A DNA stretch of 64,000 bases, taken from Verrucomicrobiota bacterium (GTDB lineage Bacteria; Verrucomicrobiota; Verrucomicrobiia; Limisphaerales; UBA8199). The translations under genes and the position numbers were made by a program. Each line of letters begins with the position of its first letter. Positions within the stretch are counted from its first letter, which is position 1. The stretch is taken from the NCBI GenBank assembly GCA_039806935.1, contig JBDHQH010000001.1, forward strand, positions 6,067 to 70,066. Direction: 5' to 3'. Shown piece by piece: positions 528-52,437 of this stretch. The notes beneath the pieces are model-generated. The model was not told where the DNA came from and did not search any database. It saw only the letters and a program-made list of their open reading frames with translations.

Positions 528-1769
528 ATGCCAACCTTCCAATACAAAGGATTGCACGCCAATGGCTCGCTGACTGAGGGAAAGCTTGAGGCGGCGGGCC
601 GCGCCGAAGCCTTTGCGCAAATGAGCGGGCAGGGCTTGCGGCCGGTCAGCCTGGTTGAATTGCAAGCCGGAAGGGCCTCCGCCGCGGGAGGCGCGCACGG
701 GCTGACCCTGCCGGGCTTTTCTCGCGCGGAGAAGATTTCGGCCCGCGCGCTCGAAAATTTCACCCGCCTGCTCTCGAGCCTGCTGGCGGCGGGCGTGCCG
801 CTCAGCCGCGCCTTGAGCATTTTGCACAAAGAGGCCGCCACGCCCGCGGCCACGGCCAAGTGGAAGGAAATTCACGGGTTGGTGATCGATGGCATGTCGC
901 TGGCCGACGCCATGGCCCGGTCCCCCGAGACCTTCCCGCGGGTTTACACCGCCATGGTCCAGGCGGGAGAGACCGGTGGATTTCTCGATCTGGTCCTGTC
1001 CCAGATCGCCGATTTCCAGGCCCGGGAGAAAGAACTGCGCTCGAAGGTGATGACCGCGATGTTGTATCCGGCCATTCTGCTCGCGTTGGCGGTCGGGGTG
1101 GTGATTTTTCTGCTGACATTTTTTATTCCAAGATTCCAGTTGGTGTTCGCGGGGTTTGGGGCGGCGCTGCCTTTGCCCACCCAAATTGTGATCGGCGTGA
1201 GCGAATCGGTCCGCTCCTACGGATTGCTGGCGCTGGCCCTCTGTTTTGCCGCCGCCATTTCGCTGCGCAACTGGCTGCTTTCAGAATCCGGCCGGCGCGC
1301 CTGGGAGGGTTTGATTTTGCGGGCCCCGCTGGCGGGACCGCTCGTTGCCCAGTTCGCCATGGCGCGCTTCTGCCGGATGCTGGGAACCTTGTTGGGCGCC
1401 GGCGTGCCTCTGGTGCAAGCCCTGAATGTGGCGCGCAAATCAATTGGCAACCAGATTCTGGTGGATGCGGTCGCAAAATCCATCGAGCGCGTGCAGGAGG
1501 GCGGCCAGCTCGGCGGCAGCCTGGCCGATTGCAAAGGCTTATTCCCCGGTTCGGTGCTGGAGATGATTTCCGTGGCTGAGGAAAGCGGCCGGCTCGATCA
1601 GGAATTAGTGCGCGTCGCCAACGTCACCGAGGGAGATTTGGATCGCCAGCTCAAGACCGCGGTCGCTTTTGCCGAACCGCTCATGCTGTTCATCATCGCC
1701 GCGTTCATCGGAACCATCTTCATTAGCATGGTGCTGCCGATTTTCACTCTTCAGGATTACATCAAATGA
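528..1769 (+). CDS. gspF: Type II secretion inner-membrane platform protein GspF/PilC family
   Basis: 413 aa and polytopic. Two internally repeated halves are visible (LSSLLAAGVPLSRAL / LGTLLGAGVPLVQAL). The C-terminal TM EPLMLFIIAAFIGTIFISMVLPIF is typical of GspF, and the gene sits between gspE and gspG. Confidence 0.9.
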   Translation: MPTFQYKGLHANGSLTEGKLEAAGRAEAFAQMSGQGLRPVSLVELQAGRASAAGGAHGLTLPGFSRAEKISARALENFTRLLSSLLAAGVPLSRALSILHKEAATPAATAKWKEIHGLVIDGMSLADAMARSPETFPRVYTAMVQAGETGGFLDLVLSQIADFQAREKELRSKVMTAMLYPAILLALAVGVVIFLLTFFIPRFQLVFAGFGAALPLPTQIVIGVSESVRSYGLLALALCFAAAISLRNWLLSESGRRAWEGLILRAPLAGPLVAQFAMARFCRMLGTLLGAGVPLVQALNVARKSIGNQILVDAVAKSIERVQEGGQLGGSLADCKGLFPGSVLEMISVAEESGRLDQELVRVANVTEGDLDRQLKTAVAFAEPLMLFIIAAFIGTIFISMVLPIFTLQDYIK

Positions 1770-1782
1770 CCCGCTCAAGCTT

Positions 1783-45358: not shown

Positions 45359-46879
45359 TTACTTGTCCGGCGCGGCCGGCTTCTCCACGCTCCGCCGCAA
45401 ACCGGGCACCCGTTCGACCAGTTGCTCGAGCTTCAACCCCGTCAGCCCCTCGAGCACGGGAGGCAACTGGGCGATGATCTGGGTGACGTCGCCCGTCAGC
45501 TTGCTGGCGCCGCCGCCTGCGCCGTTGCCGGTATTCACGATCACCATCTTCTCCGTCTTCGCGAGCGGCTCGCTGATCTTGCCGGCCACCTCGGGCAGAA
45601 CTCGGATGATCATCTCCACCACCGCGGCTTCGTTATATTGCTTGAACGATTCGGCTTTCATGCGCATGGCTTCCGCGGTGGCTTTGCCCTGCGCCTCGAT
45701 AATGGCCGCCTCGGCGAGACCGCGCGCCTTGTTGGCGTCGGCTTCCGCGATGCCGGTGGCTTTGGCGACATCCGCGTTGGCAAACCCGGTGGCCTTGGTC
45801 GCCGAAGCAGCGCCCGCCGCCTCGGCCTCGAGCTGGAACTTGCGGGCGTTCGCCAGCGTCTCGACTTTGTAGCGCTCCGCGTCCGCCGGCTTCTGCACGT
45901 TGGCCTCCAATTCCTTCTGCCGTCGCAGGATTTCCTGCTGTTGCAGCTCGATCTGTTTTTGCTTCTCCACGATATTGACCTGGACCTCCTCGGCTTTGAC
46001 GAGCTGGCCGGTCTTGAATTTCTGGAGATCATAGGCGAGATCGGCCTCGGCCTTGCGCTGGTTCACCGAAGCCTGATAGGCCGCCACGCTCATCTGGTAA
46101 TCACGCTGCGATTCCGCGATTTTCGTGTCGGCGGCGAATTTGGCCTCCTGGCCCGCCTGCTGCGCCTGCGCCGAGCGGATTTGCGAGTCCCGATCGGCCT
46201 CGGCCTGGGCGATCACCGCGTCGCGCTTGACCTGGGCGATGCGCGGCTTCCCCAAGGCGTCCAGATACCCCTGATTGTCACGGATATCCCGAATCGTGAA
46301 GCTCACGATACCCAGGCCCATGTTGGCCATGTCCCCGGCAGCGACTTCCTGCACTTTCGAGGCGAAAGCGTCGCGGTTCTGGTAAATATCCTCCACCGTC
46401 ATGGTCCCCAAAATCGCCCGCAAATGCCCCTCCAAGGTTTGCGTAGCGATGTTTTTGATCTCATCGGTGCCCTTGCTCAAAAACTGCTCCGAGGCGGTCG
46501 CGATCGAAACGTCATCGCCCTTCACTTTGATTTGCGCCACTCCATCCACCCGCACCGGCACGCCTTTGCTCGTGTAAACCTCCGGGGTCTGCACGTCGAT
46601 GGTCAGCAACTCCAGCGAAAGCACATCCACCTTTTCATACACCGGCCAGACGAAAACACCACCACCCTTGACAATCCGAAAACCCACTTCGCTGGACGTG
46701 CCGTCCGGCTCCAGGATCCGGTGTTTGCGTCCGGAAATCACCAAAACCTGGTTCGGCCCCACTTTCGTGTAACGGCTCGCCCAGATGGCGACGAACATGA
46801 AGAAGACAAAAAGGAACGCCCCAACGCCAAAGATTACCCAGGCGGTGGGCGTGATCTCGGCAAGTACGATGGTGGTCAT
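45359..46879 (-). CDS. Flotillin/SPFH (band 7) family protein, YqiK-like
   Basis: N-terminal TM, an SPFH domain (VGFRIVKGGGVFVWPVYEKVDVLSLELLTIDV), and a long A/E/Q/K-rich flotillin coiled-coil (EAEAAGAASATKATGFANADVAKATGIAEADANKARGLAEAAIIEAQGKA). Confidence 0.85.
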   Translation of the reverse strand: MTTIVLAEITPTAWVIFGVGAFLFVFFMFVAIWASRYTKVGPNQVLVISGRKHRILEPDGTSSEVGFRIVKGGGVFVWPVYEKVDVLSLELLTIDVQTPEVYTSKGVPVRVDGVAQIKVKGDDVSIATASEQFLSKGTDEIKNIATQTLEGHLRAILGTMTVEDIYQNRDAFASKVQEVAAGDMANMGLGIVSFTIRDIRDNQGYLDALGKPRIAQVKRDAVIAQAEADRDSQIRSAQAQQAGQEAKFAADTKIAESQRDYQMSVAAYQASVNQRKAEADLAYDLQKFKTGQLVKAEEVQVNIVEKQKQIELQQQEILRRQKELEANVQKPADAERYKVETLANARKFQLEAEAAGAASATKATGFANADVAKATGIAEADANKARGLAEAAIIEAQGKATAEAMRMKAESFKQYNEAAVVEMIIRVLPEVAGKISEPLAKTEKMVIVNTGNGAGGGASKLTGDVTQIIAQLPPVLEGLTGLKLEQLVERVPGLRRSVEKPAAPDK

Positions 46880-46900
46880 GTGATGATTCGCTCAGGTTGA

Positions 46901-47458
46901 TTATTGAAGTTGTTCGACAAAATATTGGGTGCCGACGATGCGGGTGATGCGAACCGGCTTGCCAGCCGCGACCGCGGAGCCTCGCTCCGTCCGGGCCGGC
47001 GCCGTATAGCGCGCGCCTCCGACCACGTAGGCAATCTCCCCCACCCCATCCGGCGGGATGGGCGTGACGATCGATGCCGTCTGTCCCACGAGTTTGCTGA
47101 TGCGCGCCTCGCTGGAACTTTGGGTCTGCTTAAAAAGCCAGTTAAAAATCAGGAATGCTCCCCACGCCAGCACCAGGCCGGCCACCGCGGAAATCGGCGC
47201 GCTGATCCAGACATTCCTGGTCAACTCAACTTTCGTCAAAATCATCCCGCACGCGCCAAAAGCGGTGATGAAACACGCCAACACGGTGGGGCTGAAGAAC
47301 GAGATCCCCGGTACCCCGCTGGCATCATACCCCGCCTCGGCGTGGCCGCCCGTCCCCACCTCGTGGCCGCCGCCATCGCTGTCGAAGAAGTGCCCCGCGA
47401 TGGCGCTGATAACCGTAAACAGCAACCCCAAAGCCAGACATGCCGCGTAAACGATCAT
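46901..47458 (-). CDS. NfeD/YqiJ-like membrane protein (OB-fold C-terminus)
   Basis: Three or four TMs and then a C-terminal OB-like segment (LVGQTASIVTPIPPDGVGEIAYVVGGARYTAPAR...GKPVRITRIVGTQYFVE). It lies immediately upstream of flotillin, which is the conserved NfeD-SPFH pairing. Confidence 0.7.
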   Translation of the reverse strand: MIVYAACLALGLLFTVISAIAGHFFDSDGGGHEVGTGGHAEAGYDASGVPGISFFSPTVLACFITAFGACGMILTKVELTRNVWISAPISAVAGLVLAWGAFLIFNWLFKQTQSSSEARISKLVGQTASIVTPIPPDGVGEIAYVVGGARYTAPARTERGSAVAAGKPVRITRIVGTQYFVEQLQ

Positions 47459-47792: not shown

Positions 47793-48116
47793 GTGACCGT
47801 CGATACATTTAAACCGGAGATTCTCCAGGCGCTGCGGAGTTACGATAAATACGTCGTCTGTGTCGGCAAAACTCCGGAAGAATTCGAGGCTGCGGTAACC
47901 TCCCTGATGGGCAAAGCCATCAAAGCATTCCAGAGCCGCGGCCCCGAATTGCGCCACGGCATTGCCCTCGACAAACAAATCACGGTCATCCTCAGCCAGA
48001 CCGACAATCCCCGCCCACTCTGCGGGATTTACTTCAATCTGCATTCGCCCTATCAAAAACCCCAGTCCCGAGCCTCCCGACGCGTGCGAGAATCCATCGG
48101 CGGCTCCGAAGAATAA
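47793..48116 (+). CDS. Small hypothetical protein (107 aa)
   Basis: GTG 47793 (or ATG 47700) to TAA 48116. Codon third positions and amino-acid composition look coding (VTVDTFKPEILQALRSYDKYVVCVGKTPEEFEAAVTSLMGKAIKAF...), unlike the antisense 222-aa ORF. No family was recognised. Confidence 0.35.
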   Translation: MTVDTFKPEILQALRSYDKYVVCVGKTPEEFEAAVTSLMGKAIKAFQSRGPELRHGIALDKQITVILSQTDNPRPLCGIYFNLHSPYQKPQSRASRRVRESIGGSEE

Positions 48117-48461
48117 CTGACGGGTCACCGCCAGGGCGGACCCGCGCGTCGCTTCCAAGCGAAAGGAGGACGGCGGCCAATGCGCGCGCGGGATTTCAGA
48201 CGATGGCGCGTTGGCTGAGTTTAGGTCTGCTGCTGCCACGGTTGGGCGGCACCGACGAGGGCGCTGGAGATTCCGGCTGGTGCCGGGCGGACACGCGCTT
48301 CTCAGGAAATGCGGGCGACTTCAATTGCGGCTGGCTCTCGCCAATACCGAACGCCCCGGTGCGATGTTTCCTTCGGGCACATCTGGGCCAAAAAGTGCGT
48401 GGCCGTTTTCCTAGGGTAGTGCGTCGCAATTGACTCGGCATATTAGCTTTGGGGTGCGAAA

Positions 48462-48836
48462 TTGTCGCCGATGCCAAAAATCGCCTCTCCCGTGGTCCTG
48501 CCCGAGGCTGATCGGAACAAACTGGAAAGCTGGGTTCGTGCTCAGTTCACCCCGCAGCAGGTAGCGGTTCGCTCTCGCATTTTGCTCCTGGCGGCCGACG
48601 GCAAGCAGGACCTGGAAATTGCCGATGAGTTAAGCGTCAACCGCCACACTTCCGCGCTCTGGCGCAAGCGCTTCCAGACCGAGGGACTGGACAGCGTGTG
48701 GGAAACCCAACCCGGTCGCGGTCGCCGACAACCCACCCGATATGGAAAAAGATGTTTGGGAAGCTGTGACATTCCTCGCAGGCGTGGACTTTATCTCAAC
48801 AGACAGACCCTACCTCTTCATGAAGGTGGATTTTGA
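48462..48836 (+). pseudogene. IS630-family transposase remnant (N-terminal HTH domain only)
   Basis: The first roughly 85 aa (LPEADRNKLESWVRAQFTPQQVAVRSRILLLAADGKQDLEIADELSVNRHTSALWRKRFQTEGLDSVWETQPGRGRR) match the IS630 ORF N-terminal pattern. The rest is non-homologous and short, and there is no DDE domain. Confidence 0.6.
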
Positions 48837-48877
48837 ATCCGAGTTGGCAAAGCTCCTAGAGCGCTGAAGCAATCTCT

Positions 48878-50023
48878 ATGAGCGGTTTCTTTTCACTGCT
48901 TCGGCTATGGATAATGTTCGCCGCCACGGCCTTTGGCCCGTGCGCCACGTTCGTCCACGACGCCGGTCAAACACTCGTCGTCGCCGCCAACGGCGTGCGG
49001 GTGACCTACACGCGGGGTCTGGACTTGGGGGGCGGGCTGGACACGGCCGGGGGCATCGGGGGCCTCCTGGCGCGGACGGACGGGGCCGGTTCGGTGTATT
49101 ACCACGCCGACGGGGCGGGGAACATAACGGCTCTGATGGATCGCGAGGGCGGGATTGCCGCCCGTTACGGCTACGGCCCGTTTGGGCGGCTGCTTTATCA
49201 ATCGGGGCCGCTGGCCGGGGCGAACCGGCCGAGATTTTCGAGCCAGCCGCCGCTGGCGCGCGCGGAGGATATTTATCAGTTTTTTTGGCGTCCGCTGTTC
49301 TCGGGATTGCCGCGCTGGGGCGGGCGCGATCCGCTGGGGGAGGCTGGAGGGGTGAATCTGTATGGGGTGCTGGGGAACAATCCGTTGAGCTACATCGATC
49401 CGTATGGGGAGGATTTGCGTTTGGCCAGCGCCAGCGGGCCATTGGAGATCTCCGGGCCGCTGGGCTACGCGCGGGGAGCCAGTGTGCTGGAGAACGTGGC
49501 GGCGATGGACGAGGCGGTGGCGGGCGGGCTGGCGAGCCTGACGGGGGATCCGCAGCTTGGGGAAGCGCTGCACCGCGCGCTTGCGGTGCTCCCGCTGGGC
49601 TGGCCGGAGGGTCTGGCCGGAGCGGGCAAGCTGGGAAAAGGGCTGACCGGTTGCGCCCCAGCCGCAGGTAAGGCGGCAACGCGAGCGGCAAAGACAGCAG
49701 AGACGGTTGCGGCTGATGCAGCAGCGGCGGGTAGCAGGTGGCCGAGCTTCATTGCGGCTGCGGACGGGAGTGTCTTTGCTGTTCCAAGAGGAGCAACAGG
49801 GCCACTCCCAACCCGTGCTCCCGGAATGCAGTTTACGGGCGGCTCTGGCGGATACGGGCCTGACCCGCGAGTAACCGGCGTTCGTTTCGTGGACACCAAC
49901 GCGAACCAAGGAGCGCGGGCGGTTTACATGAATCAGGCCGGGCAGACTGTGAATCCATTCACTGATCGCACCGTGCCGTATAGCGATCCAACCGCGCACT
50001 TCTACGTCAACCCGAACCCGTGA
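48878..50023 (+). CDS. Orphan Rhs/YD-repeat C-terminal fragment fused to a roughly 200-aa C-terminal polymorphic-toxin domain of unassigned family
   Basis: YD-repeat and Rhs core tail (GGIGGLLARTDGAGSVYYHADGAGNITALMDREGGIAARYGYGPFGRLL) and the core-end motif RDPLGEAGGVNLYGVLGNNPLSYIDPYGE at nt 49325-49411, followed by an unrelated C-terminal region. An in-frame TGA at 48866 means only about 175 aa of Rhs core are present. Confidence 0.8.
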   Translation: MSGFFSLLRLWIMFAATAFGPCATFVHDAGQTLVVAANGVRVTYTRGLDLGGGLDTAGGIGGLLARTDGAGSVYYHADGAGNITALMDREGGIAARYGYGPFGRLLYQSGPLAGANRPRFSSQPPLARAEDIYQFFWRPLFSGLPRWGGRDPLGEAGGVNLYGVLGNNPLSYIDPYGEDLRLASASGPLEISGPLGYARGASVLENVAAMDEAVAGGLASLTGDPQLGEALHRALAVLPLGWPEGLAGAGKLGKGLTGCAPAAGKAATRAAKTAETVAADAAAAGSRWPSFIAAADGSVFAVPRGATGPLPTRAPGMQFTGGSGGYGPDPRVTGVRFVDTNANQGARAVYMNQAGQTVNPFTDRTVPYSDPTAHFYVNPNP

Positions 50024-50469
50024 TGAGCAAAGACATTCGTCAGCCTTCGGACTTGGTCGGTGAGGAAATCTCAGCCGTTTGTTTCGTGCGGGACTACGTC
50101 GAGTTCCATTTTGACGGGCCGATACTTCGCAGCCTGTCGAATCCGTCCGTTCTCGTTCACGGAGTAGAACATCGCTTCCCCGAGCCGGGCTGGCGCGATG
50201 CGCTGTGCTGCATCATTGGTTCAACAGTTCGCGCGGTGAAACTGGAAGAACAGCAAGCGTTGAAGGTGACAACAACCGACGATTGCGAAATTACAATCCT
50301 GCTCGACGCCAGGAGTCTTCGCGGACCAGAGGCGATGCACTTCGTTCCGCAACCGAACGGGCCAATCCAAGTTTGGCAAAGCGGGAGGAATTGGGGGACG
50401 CACCCCTGCCGTTTCGCTGCGTTCCTGGCGCCAGCAGCAAACCTTCACCACGGTTTGGCCAGTGCTTAA
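50023..50469 (+). CDS. Putative cognate immunity protein
   Basis: Its start (GTG 50020 or ATG 50023) overlaps the toxin stop TGA 50021-50023. It is a small, acidic-leaning cytoplasmic protein (148 aa) with no recognised family. The call is by position, as is usual for Rhs-CT/immunity pairs. Confidence 0.5.
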   Translation: MSKDIRQPSDLVGEEISAVCFVRDYVEFHFDGPILRSLSNPSVLVHGVEHRFPEPGWRDALCCIIGSTVRAVKLEEQQALKVTTTDDCEITILLDARSLRGPEAMHFVPQPNGPIQVWQSGRNWGTHPCRFAAFLAPAANLHHGLASA

Positions 50470-50786
50470 TCGTTGAAGAGTCCGGCTCGCTGCCACCGAA
50501 CAATTTACGGGTGCGCCGGACCTGATCAGTCACGGCACCCCCGAAGCAACGGACCCCATACAACCCGCGGAAGCGACGGGCGCCGAAACAGAGTTATAAC
50601 CCAACGGCGCGCCGACTCTCGGACAGAGTGAAGTAAGAGCCCGCTCACCCAAGGCTACGCTATCCCCTCCCCATATCCAGATGAATCACCCCTATTTGCG
50701 GACCTCCTCGAGCCGTTATTCTCTCGTCATGGGCGGCTGGGGATGGCACCCTTTGAACCGCCCGAGAAAAAGGGAATCAGAAATCG

Positions 50787-51428
50787 ATGGCCAAAGAAGA
50801 ACGAGTGCTTTGTTTTGAACGGAAATTGCTCGACGAGCTGGGTGCATTTCAGGGACTGACCCTGGAGGTGGACAAATATTTGCCGGTGGTGACTTCCGCC
50901 AACCATCTGGTATATCGGAACCGCGGCGAGGCCGAGCAAGACCCGCGTTTCAAACAGCTCATCCCCTACGTGTTGTTGCTCTGCGATGGCAAAATCCTGC
51001 GTTACCGTCGGGGGCGGGGGGGGCAGGAGACGCGGCTGCATGGTTGGTTTTCTGTGGGTGTGGGAGGACACATCTCGGACGAGGACGCTGGCCTTTTCTC
51101 CTCGGGAGCGGGCTATCAAGAGGGGATGCGCCGGGAGTTGCGGGAAGAAGTCGCCGTCGAAGGCCTGAAAGATGCCGCAGTTGCCGCCATCAACGACGAC
51201 AGCACCGAAGTCGGACGAGTGCATTTCGGAGTGGTGCATATCATGTGCGCTCCGAACGAAAAGGTCGTCGGGAGGCGAAGCGGCATCCTGAGCCCGGAAT
51301 TCATACCTCGCGCGGAAGCGGTGAACAGTCTCAATGCTTATGAATCCTGGTCACGGTTTTGTCTGGAAAAACTGGACATCCTGGCCGCCAAAGCGGCGGC
51401 GGCGGGTATTTTTGCTTCGGGATCGTGA
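50787..51428 (+). CDS. NUDIX-hydrolase-like protein
   Basis: Nudix-box-like segment GVGGHISDEDAG...YQEGMRRELREEVAVEG, preceded by FKQLIPYVLLLCDGKILRYRR. Confidence 0.6.
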   Translation: MAKEERVLCFERKLLDELGAFQGLTLEVDKYLPVVTSANHLVYRNRGEAEQDPRFKQLIPYVLLLCDGKILRYRRGRGGQETRLHGWFSVGVGGHISDEDAGLFSSGAGYQEGMRRELREEVAVEGLKDAAVAAINDDSTEVGRVHFGVVHIMCAPNEKVVGRRSGILSPEFIPRAEAVNSLNAYESWSRFCLEKLDILAAKAAAAGIFASGS

Positions 51429-51447
51429 GGGTCGCGGCCTGATTATT

Positions 51448-52437
51448 ATGACACTCCCGACTCGAGGATTGTCGGCGGTTCTCGCGGCCGGGATTCTTCT
51501 TTGGGGCGGGATCTTCCAGGCTTCGGCCATTTTGAACGCGAATTCCCAATCCAATACCAATGCACCGCCGAACGGCGCCCCTTGGGATCACGTCGGAGGA
51601 ATCAACGGCGCGAGCGGAGTCTATCTGGCCGCCGGTTGGGCGTTGACCGCCGCGCATGTCGGCGCGGGGAATCTGGTTCTTGGAACCTCCACGCTCGCTT
51701 ATGCGGGCGTCCAGCATCGCCTGACCAACTCGGACGGCAGCGCCACCGATTTGTTGCTCATCCGCCTGAGCCAGCCGGCCCCGCTGCCGAGCCTGCCCTT
51801 GGCGGATACCCCGCCGGAGATTGACTCGTCCGTTGTGTTCATCGGCTTCGGGCACATTGCCGGCGCGGGCCCAATGCCGATCGGCAACGAGATCGGCTTC
51901 ACTTGGGCGCCTGGCGCGTTCAAGAGTTGGGGCGACAACAAAATCACCGCGACCAACGTCGTCATTGATGCCGGGTTGGGCGATGTCACTCTTTTCTCGA
52001 CCGACTTCGATGACGACGGCCAAACCCCGGATGAGTGCCAGGCGACGAATGGAGATTCTGGCGGCGGCGCCTTTCAGAAGAACGGCGCCACATGGCGCCT
52101 TCTGGGGGTGACGGATTTGGTGTCCAGCATCTCGAATCAACCGCCCTCCACCTCGGTGTTCGGAACCAGCTCCTATGCGGCCCAGATTTGCAATTACCGA
52201 GACCAGATTCTCGCCTGGCTGGCCTCTACCCCGCCCGTATTGACCGCCTTGCCTGCCGGCGGCCGCGTCGAGGTGTGCTGGCCGGATCCTGGAGTGGATT
52301 ACACCCTGCAAACCACGCTCGCGCTCGCCCCGGCGGCTTGGGACACCGTCCCGGAACCTCAGGTGTTCACGGGAGGCATGATCCGCGTTTCCGTGGCGGC
52401 AACCAACGCCGCCGCGTTCTTTCGGCTCAAGCGTTGA
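51448..52437 (+). CDS. Secreted trypsin-like (S1 family) serine protease with a C-terminal beta-rich domain
   Basis: Start chosen at ATG 51448 (signal peptide MTLPTRGLSAVLAAGILLWGGIFQASA). The catalytic triad context is WALTAAHVG (His), TDLLLIRL (Asp) and GDSGGGAF (Ser). Confidence 0.75.
   Translation: MTLPTRGLSAVLAAGILLWGGIFQASAILNANSQSNTNAPPNGAPWDHVGGINGASGVYLAAGWALTAAHVGAGNLVLGTSTLAYAGVQHRLTNSDGSATDLLLIRLSQPAPLPSLPLADTPPEIDSSVVFIGFGHIAGAGPMPIGNEIGFTWAPGAFKSWGDNKITATNVVIDAGLGDVTLFSTDFDDDGQTPDECQATNGDSGGGAFQKNGATWRLLGVTDLVSSISNQPPSTSVFGTSSYAAQICNYRDQILAWLASTPPVLTALPAGGRVEVCWPDPGVDYTLQTTLALAPAAWDTVPEPQVFTGGMIRVSVAATNAAAFFRLKR

Follow-up and report, generated by a model that had tools for sequence, protein, structure and literature searches.

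An orphan Rhs tail in a Verrucomicrobiota contig ends in a probable toxin–immunity cassette with a distant likeness to the nuclease PT7

When the end of a short Rhs-like open reading frame (ORF) matches no named toxin, and a small ORF begins on its stop codon, do the two encode a toxin and its immunity protein, and of what kind is the toxin? The question is raised by a locus in a 64,000-nucleotide stretch from a Verrucomicrobiota bacterium (assembly GCA_039806935.1, contig JBDHQH010000001.1, positions 6,067 to 70,066), hereafter the window. A first-pass annotation made from the letters alone had proposed a polymorphic-toxin C-terminus with a cognate immunity gene. We consider it rather probable that the locus is an orphan Rhs C-terminal toxin (Rhs-CT)/immunity cassette, that its toxin is distantly like PT7 of Bacillus cereus and probably cleaves nucleic acid, and that this copy is probably attenuated. 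The parts of the locus are as follows, with lengths in amino acids (aa).

48878..50023, + strand: orphan Rhs-tail/toxin ORF, 381 aa, from the ORF listing; it comprises leader, Rhs core remnant, linker, toxin module and stop
49172..49408, + strand: Rhs-associated core end, aa 99–177 (NCBIfam TIGR03696, 36.7 bits, E 4.4e-9)
49412..49729, + strand: Ala/Gly-rich linker, 106 aa, 71.7% GC (from composition; no family match)
49730..50020, + strand: C-terminal module, 97 aa, predicted all-beta, candidate toxin of an uncurated family and distantly PT7-like (from profile search, conservation, AlphaFold2 and Foldseek)
50023..50376, + strand: conserved candidate immunity protein, 118 aa, whose start overlaps the toxin stop (TGATG; from homologues and co-occurrence)
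50377..50469, + strand: window-specific read-through tail of the immunity ORF, 31 codons, plus stop (homologues end at ...QVW)

A C-terminal module and its partner gene

The first-pass annotation had treated roughly 200 aa at the end of the larger ORF as one toxin domain. We found that only the last 97 aa form a conserved unit and that the linker is unconserved: homologue matches cover 33–58% of the 204-aa query and leave the linker out, and a Pfam search of the linker returned no family. With 41.5% Ala+Gly over its 106 aa, the linker does agree with the earlier description of an Ala/Gly-rich linker and a compact terminal module, and the terminal peptide quoted there is present as written. A word-indexed homologue search returned only 9 relatives, each aligned just to the last ~95 aa. 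Profile A2 was built from the sequences of these relatives, and its hidden Markov model (HMM) was searched exhaustively over 1.84e9 cluster representatives; this retrieved 684 representatives at E<=1e-3, 425 of them at E<=1e-10, and ruled out the tiny family that the word-indexed matches had suggested. Neither the single protein nor profiles A2 and A3 found a curated match to the module in Pfam, NCBIfam or PDB sequences, the matches to 2C_adapt, CTLA-4 and a diabody being noise only. Judged by its sequence relatives, the module is a member of a large polymorphic-toxin family that lacks curation. Positions conserved in at least 90% of members are mostly Gly and Pro, together with R52, M54, Y66, N68, Q72 and H90. 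Position 55 is D or E in 138 of 142 sequences, H90 is kept in 140/142, and position 63 is R in 112/142 and Y in 28/142.

The placement of the module and the variety of its carriers are those of a polymorphic toxin, in which the same C-terminal module is found on differing delivery scaffolds. It forms the very end of the protein in 112 of the 155 proteins retrieved and ends no more than 3 residues from it in 147/155. Rhs carriers include P0133, P0144, P0154, P0201, L002 and L004. Some Rhs carriers are 1299–2890 aa long with varied N-terminal domains; the one at L002 has 1692 aa, and a carrier in a Lentisphaerae metagenome-assembled genome (MAG) is an Rhs protein of at least 999 aa. PT-HINT carriers include P0161 and a 280-aa cassette in Anthocerotibacter panamensis (L001). 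Other carriers, of ~140 aa, have only a signal-peptide-like leader (P0003, and L005 in a Verrucomicrobiae MAG), and bare 105-aa toxin cassettes occur with neither scaffold nor start codon (L008/L009, 2980..3294). The first-pass annotation had suggested looking for the domain on other scaffolds, and the search thus found it on Rhs, PT-HINT and leader-only proteins.

Two of these loci hold further toxin-like genes. At L005 (CAWBHS010000114.1), two adjacent ~140-aa proteins (704..1123 and 1353..1781) have a common leader (...LLxLxFxLSxPAM...) and unlike C-terminal modules, each with a small ORF after it; the pair has the look of an array of mini polymorphic toxins that bear leaders. L001 (CP062698.1, 3310670-3327026) holds an array of PT-HINT and CdiA_C cassettes, again with a small ORF after each.

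The gene downstream of the module is conserved as well. The toxin stop TGA (50021-50023) and the ATG at 50023 have the A in common, so that the second ORF starts on the toxin stop, as had been noted. The ORF listing opens this ORF, which runs to 50469, at a GTG (50020); homologues open at the ATG (MSKD...), and the same 1-nt stop/start overlap is present in L001 and L002. We count at least 124 homologues of the downstream ORF, which typically have 118 aa and end in ...QVW. When the HMMs of the toxin and immunity families were run across all fetched loci, an immunity homologue was found directly 3' of the toxin module in 16/16 loci, on the same strand and either overlapping or 3–40 nt away. A downstream ORF that is not conserved with the toxin domain elsewhere had been named beforehand as grounds for giving up the proposal, and the 16 loci speak to the opposite. 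The window protein departs from the family consensus (positions at >=85%) at S57W only. Its reading frame runs on for 31 extra codons because the usual stop TAG is CAA in the window; since similarity to all homologues ends at exactly this codon, the stop may have been lost at the junction of the cassette.

Together, the 684 homologues, the C-terminal placement and the 16/16 loci give strong support to the proposal of a polymorphic-toxin C-terminus with a cognate immunity gene, and we regard the module and the downstream gene as very probably a toxin/immunity pair. A conserved small ORF that lies directly downstream and co-varies with the module is also what Zhang et al. 2012 (PMC3482391) describe for polymorphic toxin CT/immunity cassettes. 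The 97-aa module would then act as a toxin in the cytoplasm of the target cell, and the 118-aa protein would neutralise it by direct binding.

A PDB sequence search with the immunity protein gave no match. Eight of 69 members of the immunity family match Pfam DUF6188 (PF19686), a domain of no known function, at E<=0.1 (best E 3.5e-4), and the window protein scores 15.0–15.3 bits; all eight fall below the DUF6188 gathering score of 27.1 bits. The two are of similar length (121 positions in DUF6188), and residues 26–118 of the immunity protein align to profile positions 19–120, although the alignments are sub-threshold. We treat this similarity in sequence as a lead rather than as membership.

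Fold of the module and its relation to PT7

The AlphaFold2 model of the module, made from a 66-sequence alignment, is all-beta, with a predicted local distance difference test score (pLDDT) of 90.6 and a predicted template-modelling (TM) score of 0.82. In a Foldseek search against the PDB, the sole match with a probability above 0.1 was 8OWU (chain B or C; probability 0.63, E 0.95, TM 0.44 by query and 0.54 by target, root-mean-square deviation 4.4), with all 76 target residues aligned. An earlier, weaker model (pLDDT 73) had given the same top-probability match (TM 0.47/0.57), and a fold search of BFVD with the module found nothing above a probability of 0.21. The entry 8OWU is the B. cereus polymorphic toxin PT7 bound to its immunity protein PIM7 (bioRxiv 10.1101/2021.10.19.465003). 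PT7 has 78 aa and PIM7 117 aa; the toxin is a Mg-dependent endo-DNase whose fold is described as novel and whose catalytic pocket is D37/H47/H49/H73 (10.1101/2021.10.19.465003).

This structural nomination was followed by a comparison of sequences, for which the PT7 sequence was partly rebuilt from the mutagenesis primers of that paper and the PT7 family was then retrieved. Single-target hhalign of the module family against PT7 gave a score of 22.6 (P 0.001–0.002), which none of 200 column shuffles reached (mean 10.3, sd 2.4, max 19). HMMER aligned the two families in one register in both directions, setting V-R-I-M-D55 of the module against I-R-M-R-I-D37 of PT7, and ...G-R-T-V-x-x-S-D-P-x-A-H90-I-P-[LWY] against ...G-x-I-V-D-x-K-S-P-D-A-H73-I-P-Y, with R63 opposite H47, V65 opposite H49 and N68 opposite D52. 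The conserved His stands 5–7 residues before the C-terminus in both. The module family thus keeps two of the four residues of the PT7 pocket (D37 as D/E55 and H73 as H90), and H47 and H49 are replaced, the H49 column being variable (V, N or S).

Several results weigh against kinship with PT7 or against a shared activity. The link is weak by database standards, with a Foldseek E of ~0.9 and TM of ~0.5, and the hhalign match is local (26–57 columns) with a probability of only 12–20%. The HMMER matches are significant only if PT7 is taken as a single, pre-chosen target. In the source paper the PT7 family was defined at DIAMOND E<=0.001 and at least 80% coverage (10.1101/2021.10.19.465003); here, 8OWU was not matched by profile A2 or A3 at E<=10, and the module HMM failed to retrieve PT7 among a few thousand ORFs (no match in L006 or L007). 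With only two of four pocket residues conserved, the module may have another chemistry or substrate. Nor does its immunity protein resemble PIM7 significantly: when the immunity family was compared with PIM7 homologues by hhalign, P was 0.11, and a second comparison, in a shifted register, matched 31 columns at P 0.009 and a probability of 4.5%.

Several of these points would suit a coincidental resemblance between small beta-rich domains, in which case the toxin would have a wholly novel fold. We think this quite improbable. Two independent lines reach the same target, which had been picked by structure before any sequence comparison; no shuffle matched the observed profile score; the register is identical in reciprocal searches and places the catalytic His alike; and each protein forms the C-terminus of a polymorphic toxin, with an immunity gene of ~117–118 aa after it. 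Remote homology to PT7 is favoured because structure nominated the target and the single-target sequence test then supported it, and the module is, on this combination of model and profile, probably a distant homologue of the PT7 fold. The earlier statement that the module could not be assigned to a named family therefore stands for Pfam, NCBIfam and PDB sequences and gives way where structure and profile comparison suggest the distant link to PT7.

What the module does is a separate matter. Metal-independent RNases typically conserve Arg, Tyr, Asn, Gln and His, and of the residues in this family R52, R/Y63, Y66, N68 and Q72 are kept where two catalytic His of PT7 are lost (H47 to R in 112/142 or Y in 28; H49 variable). 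A PT7-like scaffold could therefore have another activity than DNase: a metal-independent or RNA-specific (rRNA/tRNA) nuclease, or an enzyme acting on another phosphate-containing substrate. Wild-type PT7, too, degrades rRNA in vitro (10.64898/2026.07.31.742022). We hold such a change of activity to be unlikely, though somewhat less so than a chance resemblance: the acidic residue and terminal His common to PT7 are exactly those retained, the Foldseek lists contain no barnase/T1, BECR or colicin-type folds, and CdiA-CT ECL (4ntq) appears there at TM 0.26/0.31 and a probability of only 0.04. Because two of the four pocket residues are replaced, we put the chances that the module is a nuclease, whether of DNA or RNA and metal-dependent or not, at about even; this reading comes from sequence and model.

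A barnase/RNase Sa-like RNase, to which the D/E...R...H order might point, was considered separately. The barnase and RNase N1/T1 fold is alpha+beta, one or more N-terminal helices packing against a beta-sheet. The candidate was rejected, the model of the module being all-beta with no helix of four or more residues and the Foldseek lists containing no RNase.

If the PT7-like reading is right, the toxin would be related to a small Mg-dependent nuclease and would most likely cleave nucleic acid, with D/E55 and H90 taking the place of D37 and H73, and R/Y63, Y66 and N68 replacing the H47/H49 part of the pocket. The resemblance to PT7 extends to a small beta-rich C-terminal toxin encoded before its immunity gene, and to the h-R-h-x-D and [SD]-P-x-A-H-I-P-[YLW] motifs near the C-terminus. 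The module differs in being ~20 residues longer N-terminally, with an inserted GGSGG-x-G-L-D-x-R loop; in lacking sequence similarity at database level; in its replaced H47/H49; and in an immunity protein not detectably related to PIM7. Carriers differ as well: those of PT7 are LXG/type VII secretion system (T7SS)-type or stand-alone proteins in Firmicutes and Proteobacteria, whereas those of the module are Rhs, PT-HINT and leader proteins in Planctomycetes–Verrucomicrobia–Chlamydiae (PVC) bacteria and cyanobacteria.

A PIM7-like protein beside a PT7 homologue in Pectinatus frisingensis (CP116937.1; L007, 2754..3110) has a weak YxiG-like Pfam match (E 0.0075). This locus lies downstream of a two-partner secretion (TPS)/filamentous-haemagglutinin (CdiA-like) gene.

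Orphan polymorphic toxin–immunity cassettes are a well-known kind of locus. The toxin and immunity families of this one are uncurated and large, and the link to PT7 is new but unproven. Polymorphic toxins rank among the main sources of new enzymatic activities and antibacterial leads. It is conceivable, and we offer it tentatively, that the module represents a PT7-fold toxin superfamily (at least 684 clusters at 50% identity) with a remodelled active site, Arg/Tyr-Tyr-Asn standing for two His, and perhaps with another mechanism or substrate than the PT7 DNase; that its immunity family is perhaps the first functional clue to DUF6188; and that a 0.7-kb cassette moves between phyla. Were this true, a family widespread in environmental metagenomes and absent from Pfam and NCBIfam would gain a name, borders of 97 aa, an immunity partner and one solved relative (PT7); the tie to PT7 would yield a testable mechanism and specific residues; and the 'novel fold' nuclease class of PT7 would grow from a narrow family of Firmicutes and Proteobacteria into a much larger group borne on Rhs and PT-HINT proteins.

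A truncated Rhs scaffold

Upstream of the module, the ORF retains little of an Rhs protein. The core-end motif DPLG-x19-DPYGE had been recognised from the letters, and we read it at 49328..49411 as D151-P-L-G, exactly 19 residues, and then D174-P-Y-G-E178. Both Asp of the DPxG-x19-DPxG self-cleavage motif (D151 and D174) are kept, and the P1 position after DPYG is E178 (49409..49411), where relatives carry L or M. The match to TIGR03696 (Rhs_assc_core, cutoff 32.5 bits) is weak but above the cutoff, and full-length Rhs relatives with the same toxin score 48–65 bits against 36.7 here. A full-length Rhs protein has a long shell of many YD/RHS repeats, usually more than 1000 aa, before the core end. 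In the 381-aa ORF only the last ~130 aa of Rhs core are kept, and TIGR03696 is accompanied in it by just one sub-threshold RHS_repeat (18.1 bits, cutoff 22). Several in-frame stops close the ORF just upstream, and we found no other Rhs-like ORF or full Rhs within the 64-kb window, whose four largest ORFs encode a TPR protein, an AcrB-type pump, a sensor kinase and an SNF2 helicase.

The ORF opens with a hydrophobic leader of ~40 aa (48878..49000, +). It resembles the leader of P0009, a carrier of the same cassette (BLASTP E 7e-7). Instead of a bare 3' fragment, the ORF may thus be a short secreted form, or an Rhs that has undergone an internal deletion. A library protein, P0130 (called from M13), is identical to the 381-aa ORF. 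Directly 5' of the ORF lies a further element:

48462..48836, + strand: IS630-family transposase remnant, 124 aa, N-terminal helix-turn-helix only (Pfam HTH_23, NCBIfam transpos_IS630)

It matches HTH_23 at E 9.6e-9 and transpos_IS630 at 32.8 bits (cutoff 100), the latter over profile positions 2–53 out of 299. The event by which the rhs tail was truncated or moved probably left this remnant behind as a scar. A divergent core segment had earlier been taken to hint at decay or a divergent Rhs lineage, and the signs of decay proved stronger than stated: a truncated orphan with in-frame stops upstream, an IS630 remnant and no YD shell.

The locus resembles the orphan rhs-CT/rhsI modules of enterobacteria, described for Salmonella Typhimurium (PMC7043789) and for Serratia, where an Rhs orphan immunity gene has been reported (PMC10539506). 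Like these, it has only the 3' end of the core with DPxG-x19-DPxG, a variable toxin, an overlapping immunity gene, mobile-element debris close by and no delivery shell. It differs from them in host and Rhs lineage, in its divergent core end (36.7 bits), in having no full-length rhs within 64 kb, in the ATG and hydrophobic leader of its own, and in its different, uncurated toxin and immunity families.

Exchange and decay of the window copy

The cassette of Anthocerotibacter belongs to a Gloeobacter-like cyanobacterium, despite being 84–88% identical to the window cassette in nucleotides. Nucleotide similarity between the two opens abruptly at ~49686, 15 codons before the module, and runs as far as the final sense codon of the immunity gene; the last ~15 linker codons are thus already part of the shared cassette. 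The toxin part is 88% identical in nucleotides, with 28 synonymous and 9 non-synonymous codon differences, and the immunity gene 84% identical, with 28 synonymous and 20 non-synonymous differences. GC content is 0.72 in the linker and drops to 0.56 in the immunity gene (0.62 over the whole window). The sharp borders, the 84–88% identity and the drop in GC are the signature of an exchanged cassette, and we infer that 0.7 kb of toxin and immunity gene has been exchanged between distant lineages and recombined onto the local Rhs tail, which would have received it at ~49686..50376.

In its new setting the toxin may have been weakened. The window allele has V in place of M at position 54 (M in 137/141 family members), D in place of G at position 79 (G in 139/141, D in none) and P in place of L at position 44 (L, M or F in 140/142), positions at which the Anthocerotibacter allele has the consensus residue. 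Together with the missing shell, L44P, M54V and G79D suggest an attenuated toxin and a retained immunity gene. Weighing against this are the intact ORF and the 28 synonymous and 9 non-synonymous codon differences that separate it from the copy in Anthocerotibacter. This ratio points to purifying selection for most of the history of the ORF, and the toxin may still be active. From the sequence, we give a weakened allele about even odds. The orphan copy could not be delivered as a normal Rhs effector because it has no YD shell, and it would probably serve as a retained immunity gene and/or as a reservoir for recombination.

The same facts raise the possibility that the cassette is a dead relic in this genome, with the toxin inactive or unexpressed and neither gene functional now. 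The scaffold is truncated beside the IS630 remnant, the toxin is substituted at strongly conserved sites, the immunity gene has lost its stop codon, the cleavage motif has E at P1 in place of L or M, and we found no promoter-like site in 48100..50800 (a sigma-70 type, which may not be that of the host). Decayed copies also occur elsewhere, as a frameshifted immunity gene (L016, 2416..2747) and as toxin–immunity read-through fusions (P0185 and P0225). Yet both ORFs are intact, the immunity protein retains nearly all conserved residues, the larger ORF begins at an ATG of its own, with a leader homologous to one in another cassette carrier, and orphan Rhs modules of Salmonella are known to be expressed and functional (PMC7043789). 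We therefore consider a wholly dead cassette doubtful, although less so than either alternative reading of the toxin fold and activity, and keep to an orphan cassette whose toxin is probably attenuated. Its local weight is limited in either case: this is an ordinary orphan cassette, probably decaying, which is of value as a way into the family and not as a working weapon here.

No secretion-system genes were found near the cassette. Antisense ORFs of 271 and 364 aa (48876..49999, −) overlap the Rhs tail; all homology evidence is on the + strand, and they are the usual artefacts of high-GC sequence. The neighbouring genes are of housekeeping type (45359..47458, −; 51334..52437, +) and include a flotillin/NfeD pair, a trypsin-like protease, a NUDIX protein and ProA.

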